Of a DNA stretch of 64,000 nucleotides, positions 9,960-56,456 are shown one piece after another. Where the stretch lies: the NCBI GenBank assembly GCA_964359735.1, contig CAYHTZ010000001.1:1457-65456 (forward strand). Reading direction: 5' to 3'. How positions within the stretch are numbered: position 1 is the stretch's first letter; each line of letters opens with the position of its first letter. The notes beneath the pieces are model-generated. The model saw only the letters and a list, made by a program, of their open reading frames with translations. It ran no database searches and was not told the origin of the DNA. Source of the DNA: an uncultured Candidatus Saccharibacteria bacterium (lineage in GTDB: Bacteria > Patescibacteriota > Andersenbacteria > UBA10190). A program made the translations under genes and the position numbers.

Positions 9960-10836
9960 ACCCTATAACTAACAAATCTAACGCTTCTTCTAGCCTATCC
10001 TTACCGACCCAAAAGCTCGACAAGGTAACCTCGTCAACATGAGCCTTCTCAGCTCGGTATGACAAAGATTTGATTGCACCTGCACCTAAGGTATAGAGCC
10101 CAAAAACGAGCGGCCGAGGCAGCCACTCTCGTGCACGCAAAAAATCTGCCCGTAGCATCATATCATTAAAATGCTGTTTTGCCCGCTTGTACCTGAGCAC
10201 ACCCTCATTGCCAAACACCCCATACAGTTCAAACCGCGAAAAATGCCTCTTTACAAGATCAGTTAACTGTGCCGGCGTGAGCTCCTTAATATGATACGGA
10301 TTAAACCCGGGAAACCTCTCTGCATTCGGAGTCGTAATAATCACTTCCCCGCCCGAGGCCGCTTGAGCCTTAAGCTGCTGCAAAAACTGGTCTTGGTCTT
10401 GAACATGTTCAACTGTTTGAAAACAGCAGACAACATCGAACTGCTTTTCTTTTATCTCAGAAGGCGGGCTATCGAGCGTCCCAGAGAAAAAAGAAAGATT
10501 CGTAGCTCGATACTTTTGTTTAGCCTCTTGAACTGTACCCGTATGCGGATCCAGCGCCACTACTTCTTGTGCCTGTTGAGCTACATACGCTGCCCCATAC
10601 CCCTCTCCGCTACCCACATCCAAAACACACTTGCCTGCCGCTCGCTGCCGGGCAAAGTCATAAGCAAATAGGCTTTCTTGATAGGTCACGTTAAATTTTC
10701 CACCCGGCAGAATTCGCTCTCCCGTGAACATATATGGTAGCGTAGCATACATGGACCAGGCAGCCTGGCAACATCTTGAAAAGCGTTTCTTCCTGGTTGT
10801 GATAATTATTCTCGTGGTTTTTCTTCTATCTGCCAT
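9943..10836 (-). CDS. Class I SAM-dependent methyltransferase (true start probably internal, about 10752)
   Basis: VLDVGSGEGYGAAYVA motif I; DVVCCFQTVEHV. Confidence 0.6.
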   Translation of the reverse strand: MADRRKTTRIIITTRKKRFSRCCQAAWSMYATLPYMFTGERILPGGKFNVTYQESLFAYDFARQRAAGKCVLDVGSGEGYGAAYVAQQAQEVVALDPHTGTVQEAKQKYRATNLSFFSGTLDSPPSEIKEKQFDVVCCFQTVEHVQDQDQFLQQLKAQAASGGEVIITTPNAERFPGFNPYHIKELTPAQLTDLVKRHFSRFELYGVFGNEGVLRYKRAKQHFNDMMLRADFLRAREWLPRPLVFGLYTLGAGAIKSLSYRAEKAHVDEVTLSSFWVGKDRLEEALDLLVIGYANER

Positions 10837-23351: not shown

Positions 23352-24809
23352 CTAGTTAGCAACTACTTGAAAGTGAGCAAGCTCTGGGCAGAGGTCGCCG
23401 GGGTCGGGTTGCTTGGCATCACGGTAATGCACAAGCCACTCGGCATGGGAACTGTCGTCTTGAGGTACGACCTTAAGGTCAGAATACCCATGGCTCAAAA
23501 ACTGCAACCGGTTCCAAATGTGCACGTTTTCGGAGGAAACTGGGCCGGCACCGCGTAGACACTCTATGAGCGGACGCGTATCCACCAAAGCTGCAGCGCT
23601 ATCCGTGCGGTTTCCCAGCGAAAAATCCGCCGTGCTGCCGCCAGTTTTAAGAAATGGAATCAAAACAACAAAAGCAGACCAACCTACTAAAACTATAGAA
23701 AACAAAATAGGTATCCCCCACTTTACGCTCCCGGAGCGTAAAGTGGGGAAAGATTCAATTAAAGTTCCCAACCCCACCCCCGCCAACATCCACGCCGCTA
23801 TCACAAACATGACAAAGTAGCGCAATGTGAACCGGTCGATCATGTATAGCAGAACAGCAAGATGAATAATCATCCCGAGCAGCCACAGCAGCACCACTTT
23901 GCGCGGCCGCACGAGTAAGACGGCGGCTAATCCCAAAAGAGCTATCACTGCTGTAACTACCCAAACAACCGCCGGCGCGAACTCTACCCCTGTATATCGC
24001 GCTACGTATGAAGATCCAGATAAAACAAGTGGCAAAAGCCTAGGCAAATCGGCCAGGCGCTCCCAAAAACTCTGCGCCACTTCCACCACATCCCCTTGAT
24101 CTTCCCGAAAACTCAACAACACCCATAATTGCAGCGCGAATCCCGCAGCAAAGCCAGCAAATGCTAGTAAAGTGGACAGAACTTTTCTGCCCACTGAAAG
24201 AGCTTTCCGCAACCATAATACCAACGTTCCCGCCACTACAACTGCTGTCAGAGTTGGTAAGAACAAAATATGGTTAGAGAGAGCTATTCCGGCCGCGAAT
24301 CCTGCCAGCAACACCCGCACCGGCCTGCTCGCCGAAGCTTTAGGGAAAGCCGGCTCCCCCAGTAACCACAAAATCAGAAAGAAGAAAAAAGGGAACAATG
24401 CAATTGCCCAACCGATTCGCTCCTGGGTTAGGTATATAGGATTAAAAAACCCAAACACAAGCGCAAAAAGTGCTTGAGCTTGTCCCCCGCTCTCCGCTCC
24501 AAAAGCTCTCAGAAACACACAGGCAGCCAACCAAAAAGCCGCAAAAGATGCGAGCACCACCACGAGCCGTAATGCCAGGGGTGTATAACCAAACCCCAGA
24601 ATAAATGGCACGCGCGCATAATCAATAAGAGGCCCTATATACGATCGCTCACCCTGCACCACAAACTTTTCTGATTGTAACAGCTCGTACACATTTTCGC
24701 CCTCTGAGGCTTCATCCCCCATGAGCCCGGGCACGCTGTGTAAGAATGCCGCGTTCGCCGCTACAAAAATTCCGAATAAAATCCACACCGTTTTCCAGTA
24801 CGCACCCAT
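23352..24809 (-). CDS. Polytopic membrane protein, GT-C (PMT_2/ArnT)-like
   Basis: 485 aa, more than 10 TM segments, first periplasmic loop rich in D/E. Confidence 0.45.
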   Translation of the reverse strand: MGAYWKTVWILFGIFVAANAAFLHSVPGLMGDEASEGENVYELLQSEKFVVQGERSYIGPLIDYARVPFILGFGYTPLALRLVVVLASFAAFWLAACVFLRAFGAESGGQAQALFALVFGFFNPIYLTQERIGWAIALFPFFFFLILWLLGEPAFPKASASRPVRVLLAGFAAGIALSNHILFLPTLTAVVVAGTLVLWLRKALSVGRKVLSTLLAFAGFAAGFALQLWVLLSFREDQGDVVEVAQSFWERLADLPRLLPLVLSGSSYVARYTGVEFAPAVVWVVTAVIALLGLAAVLLVRPRKVVLLWLLGMIIHLAVLLYMIDRFTLRYFVMFVIAAWMLAGVGLGTLIESFPTLRSGSVKWGIPILFSIVLVGWSAFVVLIPFLKTGGSTADFSLGNRTDSAAALVDTRPLIECLRGAGPVSSENVHIWNRLQFLSHGYSDLKVVPQDDSSHAEWLVHYRDAKQPDPGDLCPELAHFQVVAN

Positions 24810-24833: not shown

Positions 24834-26771
24834 ATGCCCCAGTGGGAATTTATCGTCGAAGTTACGCAGCATCTCTGGCCGGGGCTATTCGCCGCATTGG
24901 CCTTTGCTCTGGGAGCAGTCGTCATCCATATCCTCCCCAAATACAAATGGCTGGCCGCCGCCATTCTTATAGTGGCCATTACGCCTGTGGCCATACCTGG
25001 TTTCTGGATCTCCAGCGCTGACTTAGGCATTTCCGACTGGGACCAGTACTTTTCCCACTACCACTACTTGCGACGCATCATTACGGAATTTAAAGAATTC
25101 CCCCTTTGGAACCCGTGGATGTGCGGCGGCACCGCCGCGTGGGGAGACCCTGAGTTCACCGGCTTCTCCCCTACCTTTCTAGCCGTTCTCGCTCTCGGCG
25201 TTGAACGGGGCTTGAAACTCATCATCTACATCGCCACTATCGTGGGCGCACTGGGCATGCTCATGCTGGGAAAGCGCCTAGGTTTTTCCGTATACGCCGC
25301 GCTCCTGGCCGCCATAGGAGTGACATTCAGCAGCGTCAACTTGCTCGAAATCGTCGAAGGCCACCCTAATATTTTCTCGGCCATGTGGATTCCGTGGATA
25401 TTCTGGTCGTGGCTGGCTGCATACCGATCAGCAAGTGATCGGCGGAAAGCAAGCGTCTGGTCAATAATCTGCGGCATCTTCTTAGCACTGACATTCTTCC
25501 AGGGCGGCATTTATCTTTTGTCGTATACCACGCTTGCATTTCTGGTTTTGATACTGCTGGCCTCTAATCATAAGCAAGCTTTCTTAGTTACTCTGAAGTC
25601 TGGGCTTTGGGCGCTGGGCTTTGCCGGAATCAAGCTCATTCCCGCGCTCTTCTGGCTCTCCCAATTTCCGGACAAAACCTACGCGGGATCTACGTACACA
25701 TTGCCCTATTTGCACCACGTTCTCTTTGGCCGCTACTTGCACAGCCATGGCGACCCAAAAGGAATTATTCCGAATCAAGGCAGCGGCTGGCATGAATACG
25801 GCGCTTATATCGGCCCATTCATCGGCGCTCTTGCTTTGATTGGCCTTACCAAAATCCGCAAAACTCGCATCGTCCTTGCGCTAGCCATAGCAGCGATCCT
25901 TGCCATTATACTCTCCTCGGCTGGTCCAGTACTCAAATCTGTCTTTGATCAAATCCCCTTCATCCCGCGCTCCAATATCTCGCGCGTGATTCTCTTCGCC
26001 GTGATTCCCCTGGCCCTCCTCGCGGGATATGGTCTCGATGTTTTGCGGGAGCGCGCCAGTCGAAAATGGGTAGCAGCCTTGTTCTCAGTTGCACTCCTTA
26101 CATATGTTGCTGGTGACCTATTCACGCTCTCTCAGCAGCTGTCTCAACAGGCCTTCGTGATCCCGTACCCCGAGATTCCCATCTCGCCTGCACCAGCTCC
26201 CATTGCCCACCTTACCCACACATACGAATATCGCCACCATGGCGTTGATTACACGCGAGCGTACGCCGCCAGCCTCCAGGGCTACGGCACCAACGCGCAT
26301 TGTACGGTCTTAGGACCTCCACAAACCATCCGGACCATTCACGATAAAGAAAACTTCGGTCCTGTTCTACAGAATGAGCGACTCGTCATTCTTAATATCC
26401 AGTGGGCACCCAGCCAAGTCACCACTCGTGTCCAAGCGCTCAAGCCGCCGCCGAACAGCCCATGGGGCGCCGGTGTTCAACTCAACACCAATTATGCGAA
26501 AGGCTGGTGGGTAGAGTTCGAAGGGGACGACACCCCAAAACCGGCTCAAAATCTTGAAGGACATGTCGGCACATTTGCCCCTCTCGGAGAGCATACCATG
26601 ACGTTTTACTACCGCCCCCGCGGCATGTGGGCAGGCATCGTTGTCAGTGCTCTCACCATCCTTAGCGCGATCATTTGGGGAGCCGGTAAGCGACGTCACG
26701 GCCAGGCAGAGACGTTCCGTTCTTCACCATCTCCCCCGCCGCCAGATCCGAGTTCGCAAACCGCACCGTAA
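24834..26771 (+). CDS. YfhO-family-like membrane protein
   Basis: EFPLWNPWMCGGTAAWGDPEFTGFSPTF is homologous to the N-termini of 16005 and 17971; 645 aa. Confidence 0.55.
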   Translation: MPQWEFIVEVTQHLWPGLFAALAFALGAVVIHILPKYKWLAAAILIVAITPVAIPGFWISSADLGISDWDQYFSHYHYLRRIITEFKEFPLWNPWMCGGTAAWGDPEFTGFSPTFLAVLALGVERGLKLIIYIATIVGALGMLMLGKRLGFSVYAALLAAIGVTFSSVNLLEIVEGHPNIFSAMWIPWIFWSWLAAYRSASDRRKASVWSIICGIFLALTFFQGGIYLLSYTTLAFLVLILLASNHKQAFLVTLKSGLWALGFAGIKLIPALFWLSQFPDKTYAGSTYTLPYLHHVLFGRYLHSHGDPKGIIPNQGSGWHEYGAYIGPFIGALALIGLTKIRKTRIVLALAIAAILAIILSSAGPVLKSVFDQIPFIPRSNISRVILFAVIPLALLAGYGLDVLRERASRKWVAALFSVALLTYVAGDLFTLSQQLSQQAFVIPYPEIPISPAPAPIAHLTHTYEYRHHGVDYTRAYAASLQGYGTNAHCTVLGPPQTIRTIHDKENFGPVLQNERLVILNIQWAPSQVTTRVQALKPPPNSPWGAGVQLNTNYAKGWWVEFEGDDTPKPAQNLEGHVGTFAPLGEHTMTFYYRPRGMWAGIVVSALTILSAIIWGAGKRRHGQAETFRSSPSPPPPDPSSQTAP

Positions 26772-28689
26772 TAGCATCACCCGGGGCAGATGTAGGGCTC
26801 TCCAAAAAAATGTAGTACGTTTTTCCCGCGGAATCTACGATCGGCTCGAACTCAAAGCGGTGGTAGAAGCTGTCCTGAACATCACTAGCATTCACCCGCA
26901 CTGTCCGTACATCCTGTTGCGAAGCAACAAGCCCTGAGCCTGCTTGCAGTGAGCCCGTCGAAGGGCCAACCACTTCACGCACATGCATAATGACATCCTG
27001 CGTGTTATGGCGGCTGCTGAACGTGGCCATGCCGACCTCGATAGCATGCCACCCATTTGTAAGTATCGGCACAAGTTGTCCAACAGTTGCCCCGCCATAT
27101 AACTCACCCACGTGGTTAGGAAAATAGTGCAGCCCACGCGTGTCGTAGACCCATACATACGGCACCCCTTGTATCTCCACCACGTGCGCTACTTTCTCAT
27201 TCTGGAATTCCTCCCATACCTCTGTCGCTGAATTTGCCGGCCCTCTTCCCAGCATGTTTCGATAGAGCACCACAAATCCTACTCGCTCATCAGCCCGTGA
27301 GCTTAAGCCCAACGTTTTTCCTTGAAAATACGCTCGCATGACCCCCGGATACCAGGAAGCTACAAACAACTCCTCCACACTTGGCTGTCTATTAAGCCAA
27401 GCGGCCGCTTCCTCCAAACCCTCTCCCCACCCTTGCTGCGACAGCGGGCGCACATCAAAAAATGGGTTGTTATAGGCAATGCTGTGGGGAATCCAAATAA
27501 AAAGCTGGGCCGCAATTAAAATAGCTATCAGAGACAGGCCTGCCCCGCGAAGCTTTAGCGAAGTGGGGACCCATCCAGAAGCGGTAAATGCAATAGCCAA
27601 CGCCCACCCTGCCACCACTGGCAACACCACCAACCCCGGCAACGCATACCGATCCGCTTTCTTCGCAGCGATCGTTATAAAAATCAAGAATCCTAAAGCA
27701 TAAACAATTAACCAAATGACATTAGAAGCCTGTGGAGACACCGTAGAGCGAAGATCCCGCGAAGCTTTAGCGAAGTGGGATCGCAGCAGAGTCATTGCAC
27801 AAGCAATTAGCGCTCCCGCGCCCAAAATCAATACAAACGGCGTTGTTCTCCCCAGAATCGTACGCACATAGAAGCTAGCGGGGGAAGTCGGCTCTTCTGA
27901 CTCTTCCAATACCACGTGAGTATCCTGAATAACGTAAGGGACTTCACGGCGGAAGTATTTCTCAAGGTCGGCGTAAAACCATAATGCCGGCCATAGGATA
28001 TAGAAAACCAGCGCCGCTATACCTAAGGTGAACCCTAGTCGCCGTACCACCTCCCCTACCCGGGTGCGATAGTCCCAAAGCAGGACCGCAGCGAAGAAGA
28101 GCACTACCCACGCCGTTGGTAAAAATTTCGTCGCCATCGCCAGCCCCAGGAAAACTCCTGCGGCAGCTAACCCTACAAAACCCCCTGCCCGGCGATAGAG
28201 GAGAAAACACAACGCTGCATTCAGCATAAATAGCGCCAGCAGCGCATCCAAGTGCACAATCTGGCTCATACCCACGCCATACGGCTCAAGCGCGAGCAAA
28301 ACTCCGGCAACCACGCCCGGCCACACGCCAAAGAGGCGTTGCAACAGCCAAGTGGCAGCACCAATCAGCCCAGCCACCACTAATACAATCGGCCAGAGTG
28401 CGGCTCGACGGAACTGCACCAAATTCGCTGGCTCCTGAGTAACTCCTAAGCGCTGCTCTTGCAGCATGATTCCCGCGCCAGCTATCCACATAGCCGTGGC
28501 CCCAGGGTGAGTCGTCATAAACGCTCCCCCGGGATCGTGGTCAATGAAGAGGTTGCGATAGAGTCCGGCGCTGCGCAGCATCCAATTTTCCTCATCCACC
28601 GTCATGAAACTGCCCAGCCCGGGCAGGCGCGCTCCTAGGGCAATGATGCCTACTCCAAGAGCAGCCCAAAATACTTTTGATATCCGCAT
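26671..28689 (-). CDS. GT39/ArnT/PMT-like GT-C glycosyltransferase with C-terminal soluble domain; carries two family B insertions
   Basis: HPGATAMW...SQIVHLDALL...QQGWGEGLEEAAAW; C-terminal domain has FYHRFEFEPIVDSAGKTYYIFL. Confidence 0.7.
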   Translation of the reverse strand: MRISKVFWAALGVGIIALGARLPGLGSFMTVDEENWMLRSAGLYRNLFIDHDPGGAFMTTHPGATAMWIAGAGIMLQEQRLGVTQEPANLVQFRRAALWPIVLVVAGLIGAATWLLQRLFGVWPGVVAGVLLALEPYGVGMSQIVHLDALLALFMLNAALCFLLYRRAGGFVGLAAAGVFLGLAMATKFLPTAWVVLFFAAVLLWDYRTRVGEVVRRLGFTLGIAALVFYILWPALWFYADLEKYFRREVPYVIQDTHVVLEESEEPTSPASFYVRTILGRTTPFVLILGAGALIACAMTLLRSHFAKASRDLRSTVSPQASNVIWLIVYALGFLIFITIAAKKADRYALPGLVVLPVVAGWALAIAFTASGWVPTSLKLRGAGLSLIAILIAAQLFIWIPHSIAYNNPFFDVRPLSQQGWGEGLEEAAAWLNRQPSVEELFVASWYPGVMRAYFQGKTLGLSSRADERVGFVVLYRNMLGRGPANSATEVWEEFQNEKVAHVVEIQGVPYVWVYDTRGLHYFPNHVGELYGGATVGQLVPILTNGWHAIEVGMATFSSRHNTQDVIMHVREVVGPSTGSLQAGSGLVASQQDVRTVRVNASDVQDSFYHRFEFEPIVDSAGKTYYIFLESPTSAPGDAITVRFANSDLAAGEMVKNGTSLPGRDVAYRLPK
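27539..27568. repeat. Family B palindromic element, copy 1 (encodes PTSLKLRGAG in the host frame)
   Basis: cctgccccgcgaagctttagcgaagtgggg. Confidence 0.8.
27753..27782. repeat. Family B element, copy 2 (encodes HFAKASRDLRS); perfect 6-bp TIR gatccc/gggatc
   Basis: gatcccgcgaagctttagcgaagtgggatc. Confidence 0.8.
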
Positions 28690-30027: not shown

Positions 30028-32682
30028 CTACCGCACCCGCCGGTAAAAGGTCAATGGGTTTGAGCCGTTCTCAACTTCGTGTACCTTCACGAAATCTCTA
30101 GGTAAACCTTGCTCTAAATCGGCGTACTCCACGAAGAAAGAAAATTGGGTTTGCGACTCGTGCAATACCCACTTCGCATCTTTGAATGCTTGTACCATTT
30201 CCTCCGCCGGGGGCAAGAAGGTGTTGAGGCGCTCAGTATCTTTCCTCGTGAACTCATACGCGTACCAACGCGGGTGGGCAATGTCAAGCGACACCGCGTG
30301 CCCTGAAACATACGGAACAAGAGCAGCGCCAGTGAAAACGGGGTCGTCAGGCGGAACATGTTCTTTGGCCCACTGGGCAGCTTCATTAATCGAGCTTTGG
30401 CCAAACGTACCGGTGTGCTCAAACAAGAACGTAATGTAACTTCCCGTATACAGCGCCCAGAACATCACTGCGACCGCGCCAGCCACCACTAGTTTCCGCA
30501 GCACTGCGATCGGCGGGTAATCGCTAGAAAGGAACAAGGGCGCCCGTAAGCGGTCAAAGAGGTACATCACCCCGGGAGCCGCCAATAAAATAAGCGGGGG
30601 AATAAACTCGGCTATATAATTGGCATGGAATTTAATCCAGTTCGTATAGAACACCACAAGTCCCAACATCCACAGCGGCCCCACGAGCGCTGCAGTAACC
30701 TTTGGTAGGAAATCTTTCTGCTTGCTACTTGATATCTGATACTTACTACTAGACATTGGTTGCGTGCTCTTCGGAACTACTGGCGGCTCTTCGAGAAGGC
30801 GAAGCGCATCTTCTTGCTGCCGCGGCATGAGCGCAACCAGCAAAACTCCCAACCCCATCACCCACCACAGCGTGGGAATACCGAGAATACGAAAGGCCTC
30901 GCCTTCATATTCGTTAAAGAATCCCCACGCCCAGCCGAACACTAACAGAGCAGGCACCCAACCCAGCTTTGGCACGTAATGATCCAGGAAGCGAATAGTT
31001 ACGCGAGAGAGGCTGTCCCGCGTAGCCTTGGCGAAGTGGGACAGCCATTCTATGCCAGCGCGTATCGCCCGCTCGCAGGCAATGCCAAACCCTAACAGTC
31101 CAAACCAAATGAGCGCTAACGACTCGCGGAAAAAGGGTGTCATCCCCCGCAGAGAATACGCGCGTATTAATCCGGCATCTTCTTCTGCCACGTTGATCCC
31201 GTCTTCGGCTGAGTTAGCGCCTAACGCTTCCCAAACTCCCTCTACCCCATACGTGAGCCAGGCTACTCCCAAGAAGAGACCGATGACTACTGCAAAACTA
31301 ATGCCCACAGTAAAAAATTGCCGCCAAACCTGCCTGCCCCGCGAAGCCTTGGCGAAGTGAGGGCCATAGAGAAGTATGAAAAGTATCGGGACAAGCCCCA
31401 ACGCCAACATGCTCTTCCGCGAGGCCACGGCGAGTCCCAGCAACACCCCAGCGAGCGCAAACCACCAACTCGCGGCCGGCGCCCTTGGCGCAAAAAGAGA
31501 GGCGCGTGGCGTGGTTCCCCTTAGTGCCATCAGAAGCACGGCGAGACCTGAGATGCCCAAAAATATTGCCACCGGCTGCGTGTGCACGTAGATATCGAAA
31601 ACAATCGCGCTGCCGAAGAATGCCCAAGCCGCAGCTGCTACCAGCCCTGTTTTCTTATCAAATAAATCCCGACCTAAGGAGTAGATGGGGAGAAGTGTTA
31701 AGGCACCGATCACAACACTCGAAAGTCTGCCTGCCAAAATGGTATGGCCAAAAATGAATTGCCAAATTGAAATCCACGCTACTACGAGCGGCGCTTTTAC
31801 ATATCCATCCCCACCCGCGAGGTTCCCCTTGAGTAAAGTCCAGGCATCGTATAAATAGTTTCCTTCATCGGTGGTGAGCGGCAGCTCCAATGCGTACCAG
31901 AGACGCATAAAGAACGCGGCTAAGAGAAGTATGGGCAACCATACGGCCAAGCTTAAAGTATGACGGCGAATCAAGCCTACGCAGACGAGAAACAGCACCG
32001 CGGGGAGCGCTAGCCTAGCCCACAACCAATATGTGCTTTTTTTCTCATCCCACGTGCCGATAAACGTCCGCGCGTATCCTTGTGCCTTGGTCCAGACAGC
32101 CTCGCGCGCTGTGACCGTGTGGTACGTTTCAAAAACCACATCAATCGTCGGCTTCCCGGCCGCGGCCAGGGTTGCCGGATCAGTCACCGCCGAGCCTTGA
32201 TCCTTGACTATAAATGCCGAGCCTAAGTGATAAGGGTCTTGGGTATTGAGATCCACCGTCACCGCGTTACCCGGCGTACTCTCCGGCGAAACCAAAAAGA
32301 AGAAGTATGTTTTGCCTTTAGAATCAGGAATTGGATCAAAAGTAAAACGATGGAATTGATTGTCACGAAGCTCGCTGGCTGACACCGACGCCACTCGTAC
32401 ATCTTCTTTTGCCGAAAGCCCCTCGCGTACATGGAGCTTCACAAGCTGCGTGTTGTCTCGATTCGAGTACGTCGCGAACATCACCGAGAGGCCCGATAAA
32501 TCATCTTTCTGTGCTACGAATGTCTGCCCCACCAACACATCGCGCACTATTTCCCCCGCGTTCGTGGTGTATTTCCCAATTTGCGTCTCAACTAATCTCA
32601 CTTTCACAAATTGGCTCGCAATCGTAGCCGCCGCTACCAGAAGTACAATCATCCCCAGCGCAAATTTTGTCGTCGTCTTCAC
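30028..32682 (-). CDS. Large membrane protein: N-terminal soluble beta domain plus GT-C-like polytopic region; carries two family B copies and one family D copy
   Basis: 884 aa; N-terminal domain has NQFHRFTFDPIPDSKGKTYFFFL; more than 12 TM segments. Confidence 0.55.
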   Translation of the reverse strand: MKTTTKFALGMIVLLVAAATIASQFVKVRLVETQIGKYTTNAGEIVRDVLVGQTFVAQKDDLSGLSVMFATYSNRDNTQLVKLHVREGLSAKEDVRVASVSASELRDNQFHRFTFDPIPDSKGKTYFFFLVSPESTPGNAVTVDLNTQDPYHLGSAFIVKDQGSAVTDPATLAAAGKPTIDVVFETYHTVTAREAVWTKAQGYARTFIGTWDEKKSTYWLWARLALPAVLFLVCVGLIRRHTLSLAVWLPILLLAAFFMRLWYALELPLTTDEGNYLYDAWTLLKGNLAGGDGYVKAPLVVAWISIWQFIFGHTILAGRLSSVVIGALTLLPIYSLGRDLFDKKTGLVAAAAWAFFGSAIVFDIYVHTQPVAIFLGISGLAVLLMALRGTTPRASLFAPRAPAASWWFALAGVLLGLAVASRKSMLALGLVPILFILLYGPHFAKASRGRQVWRQFFTVGISFAVVIGLFLGVAWLTYGVEGVWEALGANSAEDGINVAEEDAGLIRAYSLRGMTPFFRESLALIWFGLLGFGIACERAIRAGIEWLSHFAKATRDSLSRVTIRFLDHYVPKLGWVPALLVFGWAWGFFNEYEGEAFRILGIPTLWWVMGLGVLLVALMPRQQEDALRLLEEPPVVPKSTQPMSSSKYQISSSKQKDFLPKVTAALVGPLWMLGLVVFYTNWIKFHANYIAEFIPPLILLAAPGVMYLFDRLRAPLFLSSDYPPIAVLRKLVVAGAVAVMFWALYTGSYITFLFEHTGTFGQSSINEAAQWAKEHVPPDDPVFTGAALVPYVSGHAVSLDIAHPRWYAYEFTRKDTERLNTFLPPAEEMVQAFKDAKWVLHESQTQFSFFVEYADLEQGLPRDFVKVHEVENGSNPLTFYRRVR
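30713..30758. repeat. Family D repeat, in-frame (encodes MSSSKYQISSSKQKD)
   Basis: gcttgctacttgatatctgatacttactactagaca, related to 22262-22336. Confidence 0.55.
31011..31046. repeat. Family B element, copy 3 (encodes SHFAKATRDSLS); 9-bp perfect TIR ggctgtccc/gggacagcc
   Basis: ggctgtcccgcgtagccttggcgaagtgggacagcc. Confidence 0.8.
31333..31365. repeat. Family B element, copy 4 (encodes GPHFAKASRGRQ)
   Basis: cctgccccgcgaagccttggcgaagtgagggcc. Confidence 0.8.
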
Positions 32683-36699: not shown

Positions 36700-37710
36700 T
36701 TATTCTCCCAGACTCTTTTTGGGAATGAGATAATTCTGCACATAATCAGCAATGGCATCCTCCAGCTCCGTCATCTCTTCTCCATAGCCAGTGGCTCTGA
36801 GTTTAGAAATATCCGCCTGGGTAAAATTCTGGTACTGGTTTTTCAAGTTGGCCGGCATATCCACGTAGCGAATGTTCGGCATTTTCCCCACCGCGAAAAA
36901 CATCGCCCTCGCCACGTCGTTCCAACTCCTGGCTTTGCCAGTACCAACATTGTATATACCCGCGGCCTCGCGGTGATCCAGTAACCACAAAGTAGCAGCT
37001 AGTACATCTTTAATGTAAATGAAGTCTCGCTTCTGCTCGCCATCACCGAAGTCGGGGTGGTTCGACTTAAAGAGCTCAACCACTCCCTCCTGCTGCATCT
37101 GGTGAAACTTCTTAAACGGCACGCTAGCCATTTCTCCCTTGTGGTACTCATTAGGTCCAAACACATTAAAGTAGCGCACCCCCGCCACTCCGCCAGTTGG
37201 CGGATTGAGGTAGCCCCCGTCCCGCGCCCAAATATCTACCAGCAACTTGGATTTCCCATACAGGTTGAGCGGCACCAGTTCCCCAAAGAGAGCATGGTCA
37301 TCGCTGTATCCCCGCGCGCCATCGCCGTAGGTTGCCCCGCTTGAGGCATATACGCAGCGCGCCCCGCGGTCTGAACACCAGCGGATAATATCCTTAGAAT
37401 ACTCAACGTTATTATCCAACAAGTATTCCCAGTCCGTTTCCGTTGTACTGCTACATGCCCCCATGTGCAGTATGGCTTCGATGCCTGCCCCGCGAAGCCT
37501 CGGTGAAGTGGGGTCGTAATCGCCTGCCCGCAGCCTTTCTCGAAATTCTTTGATTCCAACCAACTCCTCATACTTGAGCGGAGCAATGTTGCACTCCTTC
37601 TCGTCGTGACCAACATCGTCTACCAAGAGAATATTGCTTTCTCCGCGCTCGTTTAAAGCCCATAACAGCGCCGAGCCGATAAAGCCCGCCGCGCCAGTGA
37701 TAACAATCAT
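36700..37710 (-). CDS. hldD: ADP-L-glycero-D-manno-heptose 6-epimerase (HldD/RfaD); carries a family B insertion
   Basis: MIVITGAAGFIGSAL...ILHMGACSSTTE...YASSGATYG aligns along its length with E. coli HldD; ATGA overlap with the upstream gene; track ORF extends to 37803. Confidence 0.75.
   Translation of the reverse strand: MIVITGAAGFIGSALLWALNERGESNILLVDDVGHDEKECNIAPLKYEELVGIKEFRERLRAGDYDPTSPRLRGAGIEAILHMGACSSTTETDWEYLLDNNVEYSKDIIRWCSDRGARCVYASSGATYGDGARGYSDDHALFGELVPLNLYGKSKLLVDIWARDGGYLNPPTGGVAGVRYFNVFGPNEYHKGEMASVPFKKFHQMQQEGVVELFKSNHPDFGDGEQKRDFIYIKDVLAATLWLLDHREAAGIYNVGTGKARSWNDVARAMFFAVGKMPNIRYVDMPANLKNQYQNFTQADISKLRATGYGEEMTELEDAIADYVQNYLIPKKSLGE
37484..37514. repeat. Family B element, copy 5, in-frame in hldD (encodes PTSPRLRGAG)
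   Basis: cctgccccgcgaagcctcggtgaagtgggg. Confidence 0.8.
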
Positions 37711-38219
37711 GTCCGTATCTTGGCGATGAGGCGCGTAGTTGACAAGTGATTGCGTCGCGGAGTGGTGTATCCTTTCGCCCCCACTTCTTGCATGGCGGGC
37801 CACTCAACCCACGTTTCCGGCAGGCCATAATCCGGGCCGTTGATATGCACGTGCGGTTTCACTGCTCGCACGAGCGCCTGCGGCACTCCGCCTCCATACG
37901 GGGCATCAATGACTATCACATAATCCACACACGCGAGCGCTGCTAACATAGCGGCGCGGGCTGCCTCAGGAATATAAGGACGGCTGGTCCCTTTCCCCTG
38001 CTGCACAGATTCATCTGAGTTCAGTCCCACGAATAACACATCGCCTTGGCGCCTCGCCTCTTCGAGCTGGTCAAGATGCCCGGCGTGTAAAAAGTCGAAC
38101 GAACCATTCACCGTCACAATCTTCTTGCCAGCACCCCGCAGCTCCCCAGCAACCTTGGCCGCCTCCTCGAGCGTTTTCATTTTCTCAGTCCGCCAGTTCG
38201 TTGTATCGAATTCAGGCAT
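37707..38219 (-). CDS. hldE: D-glycero-beta-D-manno-heptose 1-phosphate adenylyltransferase (stand-alone HldE domain II)
   Basis: KIVTVNGSFDFLHAGHLDQLEEAR...LFVGLNSDESV matches the E. coli HldE C-terminal domain. Confidence 0.7.
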   Translation of the reverse strand: MPEFDTTNWRTEKMKTLEEAAKVAGELRGAGKKIVTVNGSFDFLHAGHLDQLEEARRQGDVLFVGLNSDESVQQGKGTSRPYIPEAARAAMLAALACVDYVIVIDAPYGGGVPQALVRAVKPHVHINGPDYGLPETWVEWPAMQEVGAKGYTTPRRNHLSTTRLIAKIRT

Positions 38220-39207
38220 GTTTATGGACTACCATATTAAGCAATACCTCTGGGGTGATACCAACCGCTCCCACCCTACTGACTACTATAGCACCTGCCG
38301 CATTCGCGAGCTCAGCGGCTTCCACATCCGTCCCTCCCGCGAGCTTAGATAGTGCAATGGCCACCGCAGCCGTATCGCCAGCGCCGGAGGTGTCGGCTAC
38401 CTCCACTTCATGCTCCTGGCGTACATGGCGGCCTTCCCGATCCTTCCCCAGCACGTAGATGCCCTCTTCCGAGAGAGTGAGGTATATGTCTGATCCGAAT
38501 TTTTTGCGTAACTCCTGTGCCAATTCCTCCTTCGGTCTCCCCCCTTTATCGTACATATCTACTCCTAGATACTCATGCGCTTCTTTGCGATTAGGAGAAA
38601 TAATAGACACACCCACAAAGTATGCCGCCCGCGAAGGCTTTACGTCTGCCATGACCAACACATGTTCCTGTGTTTGCTTGCGCATAACAGCCTCTGCCAC
38701 TTTCGCCGTCACTACCCCCTTGGCGTAGTCAGACACAATAATCGCGTCGATATTTCCTACACTCTCCAGTGCCCGGAGCAATTCTTTTTCAATATCTTCT
38801 GGAATCTCCCGTGCCTCCTCATAATCAACTCTGAGCATTTGCTGGCTGCGTACGATATATCGAATCTTCTCAGTGGTGGGCCGGCTGGCGTCGCGCACCA
38901 GGTTAAGTTCATAGCCTTCCTCGCGAGCCGCTGCCTCCACGCGCCGGGCGATATCGTCATCACCCACCACCCCGATTAGCACCGCCTTAGCCCCTAGGGT
39001 TGCCACGTTCTTAGCTGTGTTGCCGGCCCCCCCCGTGGCGTATTTCTCCTCCTTGGCATGCAAAATTGGCACTGGCGCTTCAGGGTTAAGCCGCTCCACG
39101 TTGCCGAATACATACCGGTCCAACATGACGTCGCCCACCACCAGTACACGTTTGCCCGCGAACTGATCAATTATTTCCTTGGCTCGCTTCGGGTTCAAAG
39201 GATTCAC
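38212..39207 (-). CDS. hldE: D-glycero-beta-D-manno-heptose-7-phosphate kinase (stand-alone HldE domain I, PfkB family)
   Basis: RVLVVGDVMLDRY...PEAPVPIL...DTSGAGDT matches the E. coli HldE N-terminal domain. Confidence 0.7.
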   Translation of the reverse strand: MNPLNPKRAKEIIDQFAGKRVLVVGDVMLDRYVFGNVERLNPEAPVPILHAKEEKYATGGAGNTAKNVATLGAKAVLIGVVGDDDIARRVEAAAREEGYELNLVRDASRPTTEKIRYIVRSQQMLRVDYEEAREIPEDIEKELLRALESVGNIDAIIVSDYAKGVVTAKVAEAVMRKQTQEHVLVMADVKPSRAAYFVGVSIISPNRKEAHEYLGVDMYDKGGRPKEELAQELRKKFGSDIYLTLSEEGIYVLGKDREGRHVRQEHEVEVADTSGAGDTAAVAIALSKLAGGTDVEAAELANAAGAIVVSRVGAVGITPEVLLNMVVHKHA

Positions 39208-39739
39208 AAATTAAGTGTATAGCGTGCAAATGGAGCTCCTGCATGCGGGATGGCGTCTCACTCGGGGAGATAACCGCATAGTCGGCCGTATTCTTGAACG
39301 TGCCGCGCGGCCCGGTAAATGCAATCACTGTCATACCTTGATCGTGCGCAGCTTCAGCAGCCTTCAAAATATTCTTGGAAGTACCTGAAGTCGTGAGCCC
39401 AATAAAAATGTCTCCCTCATTCCCCAGCGCCCGCACCTGCCGAGCGAATACTTCTTCGTACCCGTAATCATTGCCAATACAGGTAATGACAGCGCCATCG
39501 GCCGTAAGCGCTACCACGGGATAGGCCGGCCGGTCCTCCTTGTAGCGGCCCACCATCTCATCAGAAAAATGTAGGGCTTCGGCCGCACTACCGCCATTGC
39601 CAGCCACCAAAACCTTATTCCCATTCCCAAATGCCTCTTTCAGCTGTTGCACCACCATGGCTACTTGTCCATGAAATTCTCCCAGATTACCGAGCACTGC
39701 TTGCAATTCCTGCGAATGTTTTTGGAACACATCTTTCAT
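39167..39739 (-). CDS. gmhA: Phosphoheptose isomerase (SIS domain)
   Basis: KVLVAGNGGSAAEALHFSDEMVGRY...RPAYPVVALT matches E. coli GmhA. Confidence 0.8.
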   Translation of the reverse strand: MKDVFQKHSQELQAVLGNLGEFHGQVAMVVQQLKEAFGNGNKVLVAGNGGSAAEALHFSDEMVGRYKEDRPAYPVVALTADGAVITCIGNDYGYEEVFARQVRALGNEGDIFIGLTTSGTSKNILKAAEAAHDQGMTVIAFTGPRGTFKNTADYAVISPSETPSRMQELHLHAIHLICESFEPEASQGNN

Positions 39740-54137: not shown

Positions 54138-54166
54138 AGCATTCAGTATATATCAGTTTTGAATTT

Positions 54167-54195
54167 CCTGCCCCGCGAAGCTTCAGCGAAGTGGG
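54167..54195. repeat. Family B element, copy 6, overlapping the 3' end and stop codon of the GT4 gene
   Basis: cctgccccgcgaagcttcagcgaagtgggg; host frame reads ...T P L R TGA. Confidence 0.8.
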
Positions 54196-55328
54196 GTGCG
54201 TTCCGACTTTTGAGCCTTGGCATACACCTCAAGCGTGGCTCTGGCACAATCGTCCCAAGAAAACTGCTGCGCTCTCTCCTTGCCCTGTGCAATGAGCCTT
54301 TCTCTGACTGCTGAATCAGTGACAATGTGCTTGAGCGCCCGCACTATACCCGGCACGTACTCGGGGTTCACAAGCCGAGCCGCTCCCTCCATGATTTCCG
54401 CTGACCCAGCCACATTAGAGGTAATAACGGGCGCACCCGCCGCTGCTGCTTCCAGCGCGGGCAGCCCGAACCCCTCGTAGAGGCTGGGGAGTAAGAGGCA
54501 CACTGATTCAGCATACAACGCCGGCAAAAGCTCTTCCGGCACAAATCCAGGGAAAACAACGTGCTTTGTGATCCCGAAGCGCTGGACTAACTTCACCATA
54601 TTGATATACCGGGGCCGAGGCTTGCCAATTAAGACAAGTTTCAGCTGGGGCATGTGCTCGCGTACCTGAGAAAAAGCAGTCAAAAGGCGCGGCAAATTCT
54701 TGTGGCTCATCCAAACACCCACGTAGAGCACAAATGGATCGCGGGATCCTATCAGGGCGCGCACCTTTGCCTTATGGGTGGCGCTCACGGGCTGGAAAAA
54801 TTGCTCATCGACTCCCTCGTATATAACCGACGGCCGTGGGAGCTTGAGAGGTAAGCGCTCTAATTCCTCCCGCGTGGTTTTCGAAACGCAGATCACTGCT
54901 CGAGCGCGGACCACCGCCCGGGCAAATACCAATTCATACACAAATTGCTTAAGTAAGCTCTGTTGTATCTGTCCCGGAAAAAGAAACCGCGTGGCATCGT
55001 GGATTGTCACCACATATGGCTTACGAAATAACATAGGCACGTTGAAATGGGTAAAGTGAAAAAGATCAGCCTTCACCGCTTCTGCTTGCCTCCAAAAAAC
55101 AGTTTGTTCTTTAACCGAGTAGTATTCGCCTTCGACTGCCACGACCGAAAAGCGATCGTGCAATAAATGCTGCCGGCGAAAGGTTTCAAACTCGGCGCGG
55201 TCCGCGCGCGGCAGCAGCACCACATATTCGTGTCCTACCGGCGTCCGGCTTAGGCTCGCAAGCAGCGAGCGCGTATACCGCCCTAAGCCCGGCCAGCCAA
55301 ATGCCCGAGCATCAATAGCAACCTTCAT
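54183..55328 (-). CDS. GT4 glycosyltransferase
   Basis: MKVAIDARAF N-terminal domain; C-terminal LYEGFGLPALEAAAAGAPVI. Confidence 0.7.
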   Translation of the reverse strand: MKVAIDARAFGWPGLGRYTRSLLASLSRTPVGHEYVVLLPRADRAEFETFRRQHLLHDRFSVVAVEGEYYSVKEQTVFWRQAEAVKADLFHFTHFNVPMLFRKPYVVTIHDATRFLFPGQIQQSLLKQFVYELVFARAVVRARAVICVSKTTREELERLPLKLPRPSVIYEGVDEQFFQPVSATHKAKVRALIGSRDPFVLYVGVWMSHKNLPRLLTAFSQVREHMPQLKLVLIGKPRPRYINMVKLVQRFGITKHVVFPGFVPEELLPALYAESVCLLLPSLYEGFGLPALEAAAAGAPVITSNVAGSAEIMEGAARLVNPEYVPGIVRALKHIVTDSAVRERLIAQGKERAQQFSWDDCARATLEVYAKAQKSERTPLR

Positions 55329-55331
55329 TTC

Positions 55332-56456
55332 TCAAGGGTAGGCAACTCGTGCCAAAACGCCTAGGGTCTCGCGCGCCGCCCTCTCCCACGAAAATCGAGC
55401 CCGGATAGTCTCCTGAACAAATCCTGGGACAAGGGGGAGTTCTCCCAGAAGCTCGCGCAGCACCAGCGCTAACTCCCCCACGTCGTACGGATCCACCAGC
55501 GTGGCCCACTCGCCTACCACCTCAGGCAGCGCCGAGTTAAACGATGTCACCACCGGCGTGCCGGCCAGTAGCGCCTCGAGCGGGGGAAAGCCGAACCCTT
55601 CATATAAGCTGGGGTAAACAAACAAATCGGCCGCGGTATAGAGAGCTGCCTTTTCCTCCTCAGGGATAAAACCAAGCACATGAATGCGATCGCGGGCCCG
55701 GGAAGCGCGCATCGCTTTGTCAATTTCACCCGTTGACCACCCAGCCGCACCCGCGATCACAAGATCCTGCGCCACGTGATCAGCAATCGCCGAATAGGCG
55801 CAGATTAAGCTATCAACATTCTTACGCGGCTCTAATGTACCCAAGTAAAGAACGAAGTGTGCAGGAAGCCCAGCGACAGGCCTACCCGCCGAAGCCTTGG
55901 CGAAGGCGGGACCCGTCGTGAGTCCCAACGAGACCCCTGAATATACCACCTGAACCTTTTCCTCTGGCACCCCGTACACATTCACTAAATCTTGTTTGGT
56001 GTGTTCGGACACCGCTATCACCGCCTGCGAGCGTTGCGCCAGCTGACGCGGCTTCATCACCGCGTGCCAAACCCGCTGCTTAAAATTAAATAACTCAGGA
56101 AAATGCTCATACGACAAGTCATGGAAAACCGACACCAGGGGGAGGCCGGCCGAAAGCGGAACGAGCCCCAGACTCGGCATAAATACGCAATCAACAGCGG
56201 GGAGCCAGCGGTCCCATTTGGGCGCGTCCAGGAAACGCTGGGCCAGTTTGAATACTTTATTCGGGTAGCGAAACTCGTGCACGGCTACGCCGCTGCCAAA
56301 ATCCGGCAGCGTAACCTTGCGCGCCGAATTGTAAAACAAGTGGTACTCATTCTGCGGCGCGACGGCCGCCAAGGCTCGCACCATCTCAGCCGTGTACCGC
56401 TCTATGCCGCTAACACCCCCCTCCATCAGCGAGCGAACGTCAATGGCAATTTTCAT
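55332..56456 (-). CDS. GT4 glycosyltransferase; carries a family B variant copy
   Basis: C-terminal LYEGFGFPPLEALLAGTPVV; contains PAFAKASAGRPVAG. Confidence 0.7.
   Translation of the reverse strand: MKIAIDVRSLMEGGVSGIERYTAEMVRALAAVAPQNEYHLFYNSARKVTLPDFGSGVAVHEFRYPNKVFKLAQRFLDAPKWDRWLPAVDCVFMPSLGLVPLSAGLPLVSVFHDLSYEHFPELFNFKQRVWHAVMKPRQLAQRSQAVIAVSEHTKQDLVNVYGVPEEKVQVVYSGVSLGLTTGPAFAKASAGRPVAGLPAHFVLYLGTLEPRKNVDSLICAYSAIADHVAQDLVIAGAAGWSTGEIDKAMRASRARDRIHVLGFIPEEEKAALYTAADLFVYPSLYEGFGFPPLEALLAGTPVVTSFNSALPEVVGEWATLVDPYDVGELALVLRELLGELPLVPGFVQETIRARFSWERAARETLGVLARVAYP
55881..55912. repeat. Family B element, copy 7 (variant)
   Basis: cctacccgccgaagccttggcgaaggcgggac. Confidence 0.7.

Follow-up and report, generated by a model that had tools for sequence, protein, structure and literature searches.

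A short hairpin repeat found across Patescibacteria occurs as an in-frame insertion in the heptose epimerase HldD

The HldD gene in the 64-kb stretch of Patescibacteria (CPR) DNA analysed here (the window) contains a copy of a short hairpin repeat, family B, which entered the gene as a unit, in the antisense orientation, after the split from a relative whose HldD is 83% identical. Family B is not peculiar to the present genome and occurs across Patescibacteria. In our best reading it is probably a selfish hairpin element of the REP or RPE kind, whose copies survive in permissive protein loops.

Identity and context of the host gene

The earlier note on this DNA, made from the sequence alone, had described the protein as aligning with HldD over its whole length. 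This was borne out by a phmmer search of the PDB, in which residues 1–325 aligned end to end with the solved structures 4EJ0 (E=5e-68) and 1EQ2 (E=9e-64). The ORF gave a Pfam Epimerase match of 4.7e-36, and a Foldseek comparison of its AlphaFold (AF2) model with the same structures (TM 0.84–0.94) showed the HldD fold. The extended-SDR motifs (N-terminal GxxGxxG with G6, G9 and G12, the catalytic Ser at S123/S124, and YxxxK with Y151 and K155) show no variation in a set of 59 homologues that includes the query, and the catalytic Y151/K155 motif was aligned with YGYSK of E. coli; the catalytic and cofactor motifs are intact in the protein with the insert. The ATG start at 37710 and the upstream gene's stop codon share bases (ATGA), and the context of the ADP-heptose pathway is present in the SIS, PfkB and CTP_transf_like genes directly upstream (Table 1).

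Table 1. Positions of HldD, the parts of its repeat copy, the upstream genes and the other family-B copies in the window
Feature	Positions	Strand	Remarks
HldD (ADP-L-glycero-D-manno-heptose 6-epimerase) CDS	36700..37710	-	336 aa; from the ORF list
Family-B copy in HldD, 5-nt flank + 26-nt imperfect hairpin	37483..37513	+	antisense to HldD
Codons P67-G76 (PTSPRLRGAG), translated form of the element	37483..37512	-	reverse complement of the repeat
5' flank GCCTG	37483..37487	+	single-stranded, conserved; family consensus GCTTG
Outer stem, left arm CCCCGC	37488..37493	+	partner 37508-37513
Inner stem-loop GCC-TC-GGT	37497..37504	+	the G10-C17 pair is G·T here
Outer stem, right arm GTGGGG	37508..37513	+	carries the family-wide G·T, pair 5-22
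Heptose-pathway adenylyltransferase (CTP_transf_like)	37707..38219	-	upstream of HldD; synteny with L126 and L002
PfkB kinase	38212..39207	-	upstream of HldD; synteny with L126 and L002
SIS/GmhA-like	39167..39739	-	upstream of HldD; synteny with L126 and L002
Family-B copy, most diverged	24321..24357	+	membrane ORF 23352..24809, in frame PAFPKASASRP, E=2.4e-7
Family-B copy	27536..27572	+	PMT-type glycosyltransferase 26671..28689, PTSLKLRGAG
Family-B copy	27748..27784	+	glycosyltransferase 26671..28689, SHFAKASRD; present at the orthologous site in L002
Family-B copy	31009..31045	+	PMT_2 protein 30028..32682, SHFAKATRD
Family-B copy	31330..31366	+	PMT_2 protein 30028..32682, PHFAKASRG; L002 orthologue without copy
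Family-B copy	54164..54200	+	spans the stop codon of GT4 gene 54183..55328
Family-B copy	55878..55914	+	GT4 gene 55332..56456, inter-domain linker aa 182-193, PAFAKASAGRP

The insertion in HldD

The repeat had been placed at 37484–37514, which is correct within 1–2 nt; the actual copy (37483–37513, plus strand) reads GCCTGCCCCGCGAAGCCTCGGTGAAGTGGGG. A covariance model of the family matched it at 37481–37517 with 47.4 bits (E=1.5e-10), and the plus strand folded as RNA gave -16.8 kcal/mol. The reverse complement of 37512 to 37483 supplies codons P67–G76, and the extra residues PTSPRLRGAG are, as claimed, the translation of the repeat.

In the alignments with 4EJ0 and 1EQ2, gaps of 9 and 8 residues fell exactly at the insert, and the HldD proteins of E. 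coli and Burkholderia lack the segment. Apart from the query, 117 of the 119 nearest homologues have a short loop of four residues here. This loop is DPKN in L001, the closest relative outside this population (83% aa identity), and neither L001 nor the syntenic relative L002 has the repeat at the DNA level, the net difference being 21 nt. The short loop in the homologues and the empty sites in L001 and L002 therefore identify the segment as a derived insertion and not an ancestral motif. The earlier note had proposed this, with an alignment of orthologs as the check; in that alignment a segment of similar length was not widespread, and only two of the 119 homologues had inserts in the loop. 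The note's figure of 8–10 extra residues needs a refinement. The net gain over the nearest relative is 7 residues (21 nt), not 10, because the 11-residue DPTSPRLRGAG took over an ancestral 4-residue loop (33 nt for 12). The gain can be put at 7–8 residues; the flanking D-P and A-G may overlap residues that already existed.

The two homologues with inserts carry different ones in the same loop; counting the query, P0016 is the third HldD with an insert. One of the two homologues, P0009, has a distinct hairpin here, whose GCCTG flank and CCCCG/CGGGG outer stem match those of the copy in the query; the loop has therefore been hit repeatedly. A metagenome scan for the empty or the filled allele of the HldD junction gave 0 matches.

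Ordinary lineage-specific variation in loop length, combined with a chance resemblance to the repeat or an assembly artefact, is scarcely credible as an explanation. It would fit the finding of this particular insert in one species-level population only, and the variation of the loop in two other homologues. However, the covariance model match has E=1.5e-10, 0.00 chance matches are expected for the 31-mer, and an identical insert is present in a contig from an independent assembly (L126, 99.7% nucleotide identity over 11.1 kb), so that the insert is not an assembly artefact. The HldD gene is also in frame and collinear on either side of the insert.

In the AF2 model of HldD (mean pLDDT 95.2), residues 63–78 form a coil with a block pLDDT of 86–88, between a helix (residues 53–62) and a strand (residues 79–82). 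The distance of the insert from NADP+ and from the oligomer interface was judged from fold topology; in a Rossmann fold this coil would lie at the N-terminal end of beta-4, at the sheet edge that lies opposite NADP+ and the active site. Given such a position, the extra residues are most likely carried as a tolerated passenger and play no part in catalysis.

Copies of the repeat in the window

A repeat search found 8 family-B copies in the window. The covariance model recovered all of them at E<=2.4e-7 and gave the next best match at E=0.24, a gap that is partly by construction because the 8 copies were among the 125 sequences from which the model was built. The exact 31-mer with up to 3 mismatches was found twice, with a chance expectation of 0.00. 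Of the 8 copies, 7 are contained entirely in an ORF and one runs across a stop codon. Compensatory changes (CCCGCC/GGCGGG) are seen in the stem of the copy at 55878–55914.

Structure and conservation of the element

Family B is dispersed and strand-asymmetric. Its GCYTG flank is followed by a 26-nt imperfect hairpin, which comprises a 6-bp stem containing a fixed G·T, then a symmetric internal loop (GAA/GAA), 2–3 further pairs and a tiny loop. Each position of the 5' flank is conserved in 59–97 of 117 copies, the 3' flank is not conserved, and no pairing signal was detected outside the hairpin in these copies. The loop-closing pair 12–15 covaries, being UA in 64, CG in 59, UG in 2 and CA in 0 of 125 copies, and pair 1–26 also covaries across the family. 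Standard pairs fill 99.4% of cells versus 93.7% in shuffles, and 0 of 500 shuffles reached the observed value. Pair 5–22 is G·U in 123 of the 125 copies and C-G in the other 2. With this constant G·T in a covarying stem, only the plus strand pairs fully, and it is therefore the folding strand. In Rfam 15, RNase P was the sole match in the whole window at gathering thresholds, and a search of one region with two copies at permissive E-values gave no overlap with either copy.

Across phyla, the 26-nt core hardly varies: differences are limited to 5 positions, 4 of which covary. GCGAAG forms a direct repeat with an 11-nt period. In orthologous copies, third-codon positions were kept in 17 of 22 cases, compared with 39% elsewhere in these genes (p=5.6e-4). 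The kept third-codon positions and the near-invariant core suggest that the element is constrained or homogenised and is not neutral junk.

Spread across Patescibacteria and position in genes

An exact 23-nt pattern matched at least 119 loci in a collection of species-representative genomes, and the labelled loci among them belong to many Patescibacteria phyla. HldD, LeuRS and the other genes compared are only about 55–85% identical between lineages, whereas the element is nearly identical. Open frames of at least 150 aa contain 69 of the 115 copies examined, 57 in antisense and 12 in sense; the host genes outside the window encode LeuRS, a ValRS-type class I synthetase, AtpD, UvrC, TGT and EF-G. 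A replication-linked orientation bias was not supported, since copies outside ORFs are unbiased (10 vs 8). Many of the non-coding copies are found 5–75 nt downstream of a stop codon, and the gene pairs around copies are convergent in 6 cases versus divergent in 2.

The element is open in nearly all six frames and encodes a short peptide rich in Pro, Gly, Ser, Ala, Arg and Lys. One frame would run into a stop in the TAAA-loop variant, and only the CCAAGG- and CCAAAG-loop variants use it. Intron-like removal at the RNA level was rejected on the grounds that copies within genes avoid the frame with the stop codon and preserve the frame of the host gene.

If the peptide itself were selected, HldD and other host proteins would gain function from it as a flexible, basic loop. 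The coding copies are indeed biased in orientation and frame towards PHFAKASRGK and PTS(L/P)(K/R)LRGA, and the insert sites are loops and linkers. Yet at least five frames and both orientations occur among the coding copies, in some cases at one and the same site of a protein, intergenic copies also occur, the DNA itself is conserved at synonymous sites as well, and the host proteins are functionally unrelated. We consider selection for the peptide very improbable.

A nucleic-acid signal selected by the host deserves more weight but is still unlikely. The repeat would then be, for example, a site of binding or processing by a conserved Patescibacteria protein, a tag of the DNA-uptake type or a 3' RNA hairpin, and copies would be kept even in genes to maintain a required chromosomal density. 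The near-invariant core with its covarying positions, the conserved synonymous positions, the GCGAAG period, and the placement of non-coding copies past stop codons and between convergent genes are all consistent with such a signal. Against it, the element arrives as a unit and not by stepwise point mutation, and nested copies exist, L035 and L047 each having a copy within the loop of another. Syntenic relatives differ about five-fold in the number of copies (1 in L002 vs 5 in the corresponding part of the window), and density is uneven, with about 1 copy per 8 kb in the window versus about 1 extra per 34 kb elsewhere. The covariation and the G·T pair speak against a double-stranded binding site, and the foldable strand is antisense to the mRNA in most coding copies.

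Search for mobility functions and net length changes

A Pfam search of the 52 window ORFs found genes for glycan synthesis and housekeeping functions only, with no transposase, integrase or HUH protein among them. All-against-all clustering of 1,325 ORFs from the 119 loci gave no recurrent neighbour gene. A small GIY-YIG protein present in 5 loci was rejected as coincidental; its distance is variable and it is often near tRNA genes. Matching k-mers across the element were not in excess over shuffled pairs, and target-site duplication was thus not detected. A scan of IMG/VR for the element gave 0 matches and therefore no evidence for a phage vector. The stem resembles type I-E CRISPR repeats; a CRISPR origin was rejected, the copies being solitary and kilobases apart.

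Net length change at filled sites was compared with empty relatives. At one site in LeuRS, each of three genomes that have the element exceeds the empty relative by 18 nt (27 nt for 9), and in the ValRS-type class I synthetase of L061, PHFAKASRGKP stands in place of a segment of equal length. The net changes across filled sites were 0, +18, +21 and +30–33 nt with a core of 26 nt, and a cut-and-paste unit of fixed length does not predict this variation. Such replacement of sequence, in HldD, LeuRS and L061 alike, would be expected of templated copying, in which another copy serves as template, through microhomology-mediated gene conversion or by template switching, and a stretch of the target is overwritten. 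The plausible ancestral HldD loop DPAG (GAC CCC GCA GGC) already resembles both element ends, GCCTGC and GGGGTC, and templated copying would also fit the lack of a target-site duplication and of a transposase among the window ORFs. However, the ancestral sequence is drawn from relatives that are only 72–83% identical, microhomologies of 5–6 nt are possible by chance, and between genomes a given loop may be filled in either orientation, which is not a prediction of simple conversion. Templated copying is accordingly a less promising candidate than a host signal, and we think it decidedly unlikely.

Discussion

In the reading that we favour, the repeat would be selfish and of a REP- or RPE-like kind, and it would spread within Patescibacteria genomes and possibly between them. 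Spread would take place via a single-stranded hairpin form, recognised in trans by a putative enzyme. Most insertions into genes would probably be lost, and the survivors would be copies that encode a short, tolerable peptide in a permissive loop or linker. Against this reading, no mobilising enzyme turned up among the 52 window ORFs or as a recurrent neighbour in the 119 loci, target-site duplications and copies in IMG/VR were not detected, the net length changes are not those of a fixed-length unit, and the sequence of the element bears signs of constraint or homogenisation. No published description of the repeat in Patescibacteria, within genes or otherwise, was found in the searchable literature, and searches on the DNA and peptide strings of the element, on REP, MITE or palindromic elements in CPR and on RAYT in CPR returned nothing relevant.

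Rickettsia palindromic elements (RPEs) are about 100–150 bp long, belong to one genus and are translated in frame as tolerated surface segments. Described reportedly by Ogata et al. in 2000, they resemble family B as dispersed palindromic repeats that lie in frame in unrelated, often essential genes of small, host-dependent genomes. Family B is likewise translated, in HldD and in the PMT-type and GT4 genes of the window and elsewhere in LeuRS, the ValRS-type synthetase, AtpD, UvrC, TGT and EF-G. It differs in being only 31 nt long, in its 5-nt asymmetric flank and in its near identity across many Patescibacteria phyla, and the two have no sequence relationship.

REP/BIME sequences number tens to hundreds per genome and are mobilised by RAYT (HUH Y1) transposases, the gene for which is normally present and flanked by REPs. 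They have in common with family B a length of about 20–40 nt, an imperfect GC-rich hairpin, a strand-marking mismatch and no target-site duplication. As a palindrome of this type, family B has a 26-nt hairpin, with 8 copies per 64 kb and at least 119 loci elsewhere. REPs have a short conserved GTAG-like motif on the 5' side only; family B has a one-sided GCYTG flank with the fixed G·T, which differs from GTAG but may play a comparable part. By definition REPs lie outside genes, and their sequences are specific to a species, whereas about 60% of family-B copies (69/115) are intragenic and the sequence is common to the superphylum. No RAYT was found among the 52 window ORFs or as a recurrent neighbour in the 119 loci.

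The Correia/NEMIS elements are bacterial MITEs that insert into genes. The QMITEs of Coxiella are reported as another case (PMC5896051). MITEs are, like family B, non-autonomous with inverted ends and can extend or alter ORFs, but they are 50–500 bp or longer, IS-derived and flanked by target-site duplications, in contrast to the 31 nt of family B with no duplication. IS elements were not seen in the window or in the 119 loci.

The uptake sequences USS and DUS of Pasteurellaceae and Neisseriaceae are also short, dense motifs shared by related species, often coding in tolerated frames, and they sometimes form terminator hairpins. They have cores of 9–12 nt, arise by mutation or recombination and show no hairpin covariation, whereas filled family-B sites are 18–33 nt longer than empty ones and copies can be nested. 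The GC clusters of yeast mitochondria are hairpin repeats. Coding palindromes or hairpin repeats are reported in mitochondrial genes of Nematomorpha (PMC6649704). Such mitochondrial repeats are similarly in frame in conserved genes of reduced genomes but are organellar, of other size and sequence, and without a conserved one-sided flank.

The HldD case alone is a modest result, a tolerated passenger loop of 7 residues, and the family is of more interest. The ultra-small Patescibacteria have very small, gene-dense genomes for which streamlining is generally assumed. These genomes nevertheless contain a GC-rich hairpin repeat, much of which is translated in aminoacyl-tRNA synthetases, ATP synthase, UvrC, TGT and cell-envelope enzymes. 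A further-reaching proposal, possible but doubtful, is that a putative conserved machinery acting on a single strand keeps the 31-nt hairpin near-identical throughout the radiation, and that the hairpin repeatedly enters loops of essential proteins, in some cases one and the same loop in either orientation. If this were true, the element would be both sequence-constrained and a general generator of protein-loop diversity in reduced genomes, and it would count as a mobile or homogenised element of a new class, not as a small REP.

If confirmed, the family would provide a marker of, and a handle on, a putative DNA- or RNA-processing activity common to the whole radiation. It would also account for some of the unexplained insertions in CPR proteins that trouble alignments, phylogenies and structure prediction, and would offer natural experiments on the tolerance of protein loops to insertion. 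The precedent of Rickettsia, selfish DNA inside genes, would then reach a far broader clade, and with an element that is much smaller.

Insertion of the repeat into HldD

The HldD gene encodes an epimerase, and its start codon shares bases with the upstream gene's stop codon (table). The protein aligned over essentially its whole length with Burkholderia HldD (4EJ0, E=5e-68) and E. coli HldD (1EQ2, E=9e-64), confirming the full-length match to the E. coli enzyme described in an earlier note. Both alignments contain a gap (9 residues for 4EJ0, 8 for 1EQ2) between ...AGD(Y/F) and (I/V)EAI.H. Codons P67-G76 read PTSPRLRGAG and are translated from the reverse complement of the family-B copy, as the note had stated; its repeat coordinates were correct to within 1-2 nt.

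A short loop of constant length (e.g. DPKN, DRAG, NKAG) was found in 117 of the 120 nearest database proteins, one of the 120 being the query itself, so no similar segment is widespread among orthologues. The closest relative outside the population, P0002 (83% identity, 325 aa), reads AGDY-DPKN-IEAILH, compared with AGDY-DPTSPRLRGAG-IEAILH in the window HldD. Codon-level DNA alignment showed a clean 21-nt gap in contig L001, which carries P0002, and in L002, a syntenic contig from a relative at 72% identity. The 33-nt stretch GAC CCC ... GCA GGC effectively substitutes for a 12-nt loop. These comparisons show that the HldD segment is derived: a dispersed hairpin repeat was inserted there as a unit and is translated in frame. 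The note's insertion was borne out, with its size of 8-10 aa refined: the net gain is 7 aa relative to close relatives and 8 aa relative to E. coli.

The insert is not a mis-assembly, because it is identical in L126, a second assembly from Hainich groundwater that matches window 35937-47076 at 99.7% identity, and an artefact is an unlikely explanation of the element. The L126 HldD is named at NCBI under 'Patescibacteria group bacterium', and more distant homologues under Candidatus Andersenbacteria.

Among the 120 nearest proteins, only the homologues P0009 and P0016 carry different inserts at this loop. P0009 has GCCTG-CCCCGTGGCCAGC-GTCA-GCTGGCTTTACGGGG, a net gain of 11 aa; its hairpin differs from family B and has in common with it the GCCTG flank and the CCCCG/CGGGG outer stem. 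Judged from its sequence, P0009 is an independent hit on the HldD loop. The P0016 insert is NASPLLGSGASSEE.

Place of the insert in the HldD fold

An AlphaFold2 model of HldD (59 homologues, mean pLDDT 95.2) was superposed on 4EJ0, 1EQ2 and 2X6T with TM scores of 0.84-0.94. In the model, coil 63-78, which includes one turn at 70-72, joins helix 53-62 to strand 79-82; the pLDDT values of 88 (block 61-70) and 86 (block 71-80) are among the lowest of the 10-residue blocks in the chain. The glycine motif, S123/S124, Y151 and K155, invariant across the family, are kept. Since the insert comes ahead of beta-4, a strand whose C-terminal end runs into the cofactor-contacting segment HxGAxSS, Rossmann-fold topology would place it at the sheet edge opposite NADP+. 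On this model, the insert is most likely a tolerated passenger loop.

The gene lies in a complete-looking ADP-heptose pathway of a Patescibacteria genome, with kinase and adenylyltransferase as separate genes, adjoining dTDP-rhamnose genes inside a ~60-kb glycosyltransferase and methyltransferase island.

Coordinates of the features, with loci carrying doubtful labels
Feature	Location	Strand	Remarks
HldD, ADP-L-glycero-D-manno-heptose 6-epimerase	36700..37710	-	full-length, 336 aa from ATG
Family-B copy in HldD	37483-37513	+	GCCTGCCCCGCGAAGCCTCGGTGAAGTGGGG
P0009 insert	L122 598-640		at HldD insert position
ADP-heptose pathway	35809-45709
Different hairpin at site orthologous to window copy 27538	L002 ~19183-19224		CCCCTATTTTACAC...GTGTAAAATGGGG
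Copy nested in loop of another copy	L035 ~888-924; L047 ~1402-1438
Tandem family-B pair	L099 876-950		N-terminus of UvrC-like protein
Other strong GC-rich hairpins inside ORFs	23716-23748; 22887-22929; 9072-9110; 9392-9419; 56758-56788		perfect stems 7-15 bp, four of them 11-15 bp
Bacterial RNase P RNA	59829-60298	+	197 bits; 470 nt against 367-position model
Hairpin in RNase P RNA	60119-60154		15 bp
Trp_repressor-family genes	40678-41233; 49420-49925		small; each between 21-25-nt inverted repeats
Trp_repressor-family gene in L002	L002 9457-9846		directly upstream of HldD; none there in window
Near-identical stretches	4857-4984; 11956-12083		93-95% identical
ORFs with these stretches	3767..5416; 10836..12524	+	no Pfam match; PMT_2 match
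Small ORF	62419-62820	-	between enolase and RecJ genes
Gammaproteobacteria/Pseudomonadales-labelled loci			L004, L008, L009, L017, L023, L024, L031, L035, L038, L041, L048, L049, L058-L061, L063-L066, L074, L079

Anatomy of family B

A repeat search found eight 34-nt copies in the window, all on the + strand. All eight scored E<=2.4e-7 with a covariance model and the next match E=0.24, a separation that is partly by construction, as the eight are included in the model's 125 training sequences. By dinucleotide shuffling, the 31-mer was expected 0.00 times at <=3 mismatches. The core is CCCCGC-GAA-GC-YTYR-GC-GAA-GTGGGG, and the + strands of the window copies are predicted to fold as RNA at -15 to -20 kcal/mol; the HldD copy gave -16.8 kcal/mol, compared with -9.7 for its opposite strand.

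Pairs were counted across an alignment of 125 distinct copies, of which 8 are those of the window and 117 were drawn from other genomes. The outermost pair 1-26 varies (C-G 76, U-A 40, U-G 5, A-U 1, unpaired 3), as does the loop-closing pair 12-15 (U-A 64, C-G 59, U-G 2, C-A 0), and 123 copies have G·U at pair 5-22, the other 2 having C-G. Standard pairs made up 99.4% of cells against 93.7% in shuffles, none of 500 shuffles reached this value, and the signal was lost when the register was slid; most remaining columns are fixed by the search pattern and so are uninformative on pairing. Because of the fixed G·T pair, the full stem is possible on one strand only, and the hairpin is shown to be maintained on that strand. 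The 5' flank GCTTG is conserved at 59, 73, 77, 87 and 97 of 117 copies, position by position. Downstream of the hairpin, the same 117 copies have no conserved positions and no further pairing; this makes the element asymmetric, with a 5-nt flank on one side of a 26-nt hairpin.

The five other GC-rich hairpins in the table do not belong to family B and carry no GCYTG flank; they look like additional intragenic hairpin-repeat families. The hairpin in RNase P RNA may be an extra helix.

Distribution across genomes

An exact scan with CCGCGWAGCYTYRGCGAAGTGGG of GTDB representative genomes, one for each species, matched at least 119 loci, against ~0.3 expected by chance from a hand estimate. The 80 titled loci name Berkelbacteria, Nomurabacteria, Staskawiczbacteria, Zambryskibacteria, Woesebacteria, Daviesbacteria, Gottesmanbacteria, Beckwithbacteria, Wildermuthbacteria, Colwellbacteria, Saccharibacteria, Kazan and unclassified Patescibacteria, and GC around the copies was 31-60% at the loci examined. 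Family B is thus shown to span Patescibacteria. IMG/VR contained no copies. Across 100 loci (712 kb), the model gave 121 matches; leaving aside the copy by which each locus was recruited, this amounts to ~1 extra copy per 34 kb. The density in the window is 1 per 8 kb.

About 20 of the 80 titled loci carry the label 'uncultured Gammaproteobacteria' or 'uncultured Pseudomonadales' (table). The label of L049, the one tested, is wrong, because its LeuRS is 65-74% identical to Beckwithbacteria LeuRS; the public labels of the other such contigs also appear to be wrong.

Coding context

Seven window copies lie wholly within minus-strand ORFs and one runs across a stop codon. They are read in two frames, PTS(L/P)(K/R)LRGAG and (P/S)(H/A)FAKA(S/T)(R/A)(G/D), in two PMT-type membrane glycosyltransferases (two copies apiece), two GT4 transferases (one copy in an inter-domain linker), an unannotated membrane ORF and HldD. 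Outside the window, 69 of 115 copies are within open frames of 150 aa or more, 57 antisense and 12 sense. Hosts include LeuRS, identified by sequence comparison, and proteins that we take from recognised motifs to be a ValRS-type class I synthetase, ThrRS, EF-G, UvrC, ATP synthase beta subunit and tRNA-guanine transglycosylase (TGT).

The 57 antisense copies read PHFAKASRGK (22), PTSxxLRGA (32) or PLRQGFAGQ (3). One antisense frame would meet a stop codon in TAAA-loop copies, and it is taken solely by CCAAGG- and CCAAAG-loop variants; this avoidance indicates that the copies are carried into protein and not spliced out. Outside ORFs, copies showed no preferred orientation relative to flanking genes (10 vs 8). 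The coding bias is therefore attributed to selection on the translated product in preference to a strand-specific insertion step. A function at the level of the peptide is unlikely; in TGT, UvrC and AtpD, copies occupy one and the same loop in opposite orientations in different genomes, as in the TGT variants SPREALAKW, PHFAKATRG and empty.

Presence, absence and change of copies

In L002, the orthologue of ORF 26671..28689 has an element at the site of window copy 27750, with differences confined to the polymorphic, covarying positions of the family. L002 is without copies 31332 and 37483, and no counterpart of 31011 could be recognised in it. At the site of copy 27538, the L002 hairpin has only the CCCC/GGGG ends in common with family B. 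In two orthologous pairs, third-codon identity was 17/22 inside the element and 481/1226 elsewhere in the genes (p=5.6e-4), which suggests constraint or homogenisation of the nucleic-acid sequence, or else two hits on the site. A nucleic-acid signal selected by the host is accordingly one reading of family B, which we regard as doubtful.

The N-terminal site of LeuRS is empty in most relatives; one genome has an intact copy there. At LeuRS codons ~26-37, L124 and L125 have a 27-nt core with 1 nt added at a different place in each, and the frame changes mid-element (first half NPT.., second half KASRGK). All three element-bearing LeuRS genes gain 18 nt over an 81%-identical empty relative, and net changes at filled sites range from 0 to +33 nt. 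Nested and tandem copies also occur (table). No target-site duplication was detectable at family-B copies.

Other features were seen in the window. The Trp_repressor-family genes with their inverted repeats may form a small mobile cassette, and the near-identical stretches suggest recent duplication or conversion between paralogues. The small ORF 62419-62820 weakly resembles '23S rRNA intervening sequence protein' (29 bits, below cut-off).

Origin and relation to known elements

We infer that family B is a selfish REP- or RPE-like repeat. It would move as a single-stranded hairpin acted on by an enzyme in trans, and the surviving coding copies would be those filtered for permissive loops and loop-friendly peptides. 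The 52 window ORFs include no transposase, integrase or HUH protein, and no neighbour gene recurs across element loci; both results count against a simple transposon model, as do the variable net insert lengths and the unusually strong sequence constraint. A plausible ancestral loop, DPAG (GAC CCC GCA GGC), resembles both element ends, which favors spread by microhomology-templated copying, a route we consider quite improbable overall.

In behaviour, family B is closest to Rickettsia palindromic elements, which are in-frame, translated selfish DNA within essential genes; however, it is far smaller, has no sequence relation to them and falls outside their definition. In looks it is closest to REP sequences (~30-nt hairpin, marking mismatch, one-sided flank), but it is mostly intragenic, is not species-specific and has no RAYT in the DNA examined, and thus is not a REP by definition either. 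Size and target-site duplication separate it from MITEs, and it is no USS/DUS, since it is inserted as a unit.

No Rfam family matched family B, and the full-text literature, with most subscription journals outside it, gave no account of its sequence or peptides, nor of a CPR counterpart. With no prior description found, the HldD insert exposes a hairpin element that is superphylum-wide and largely coding.
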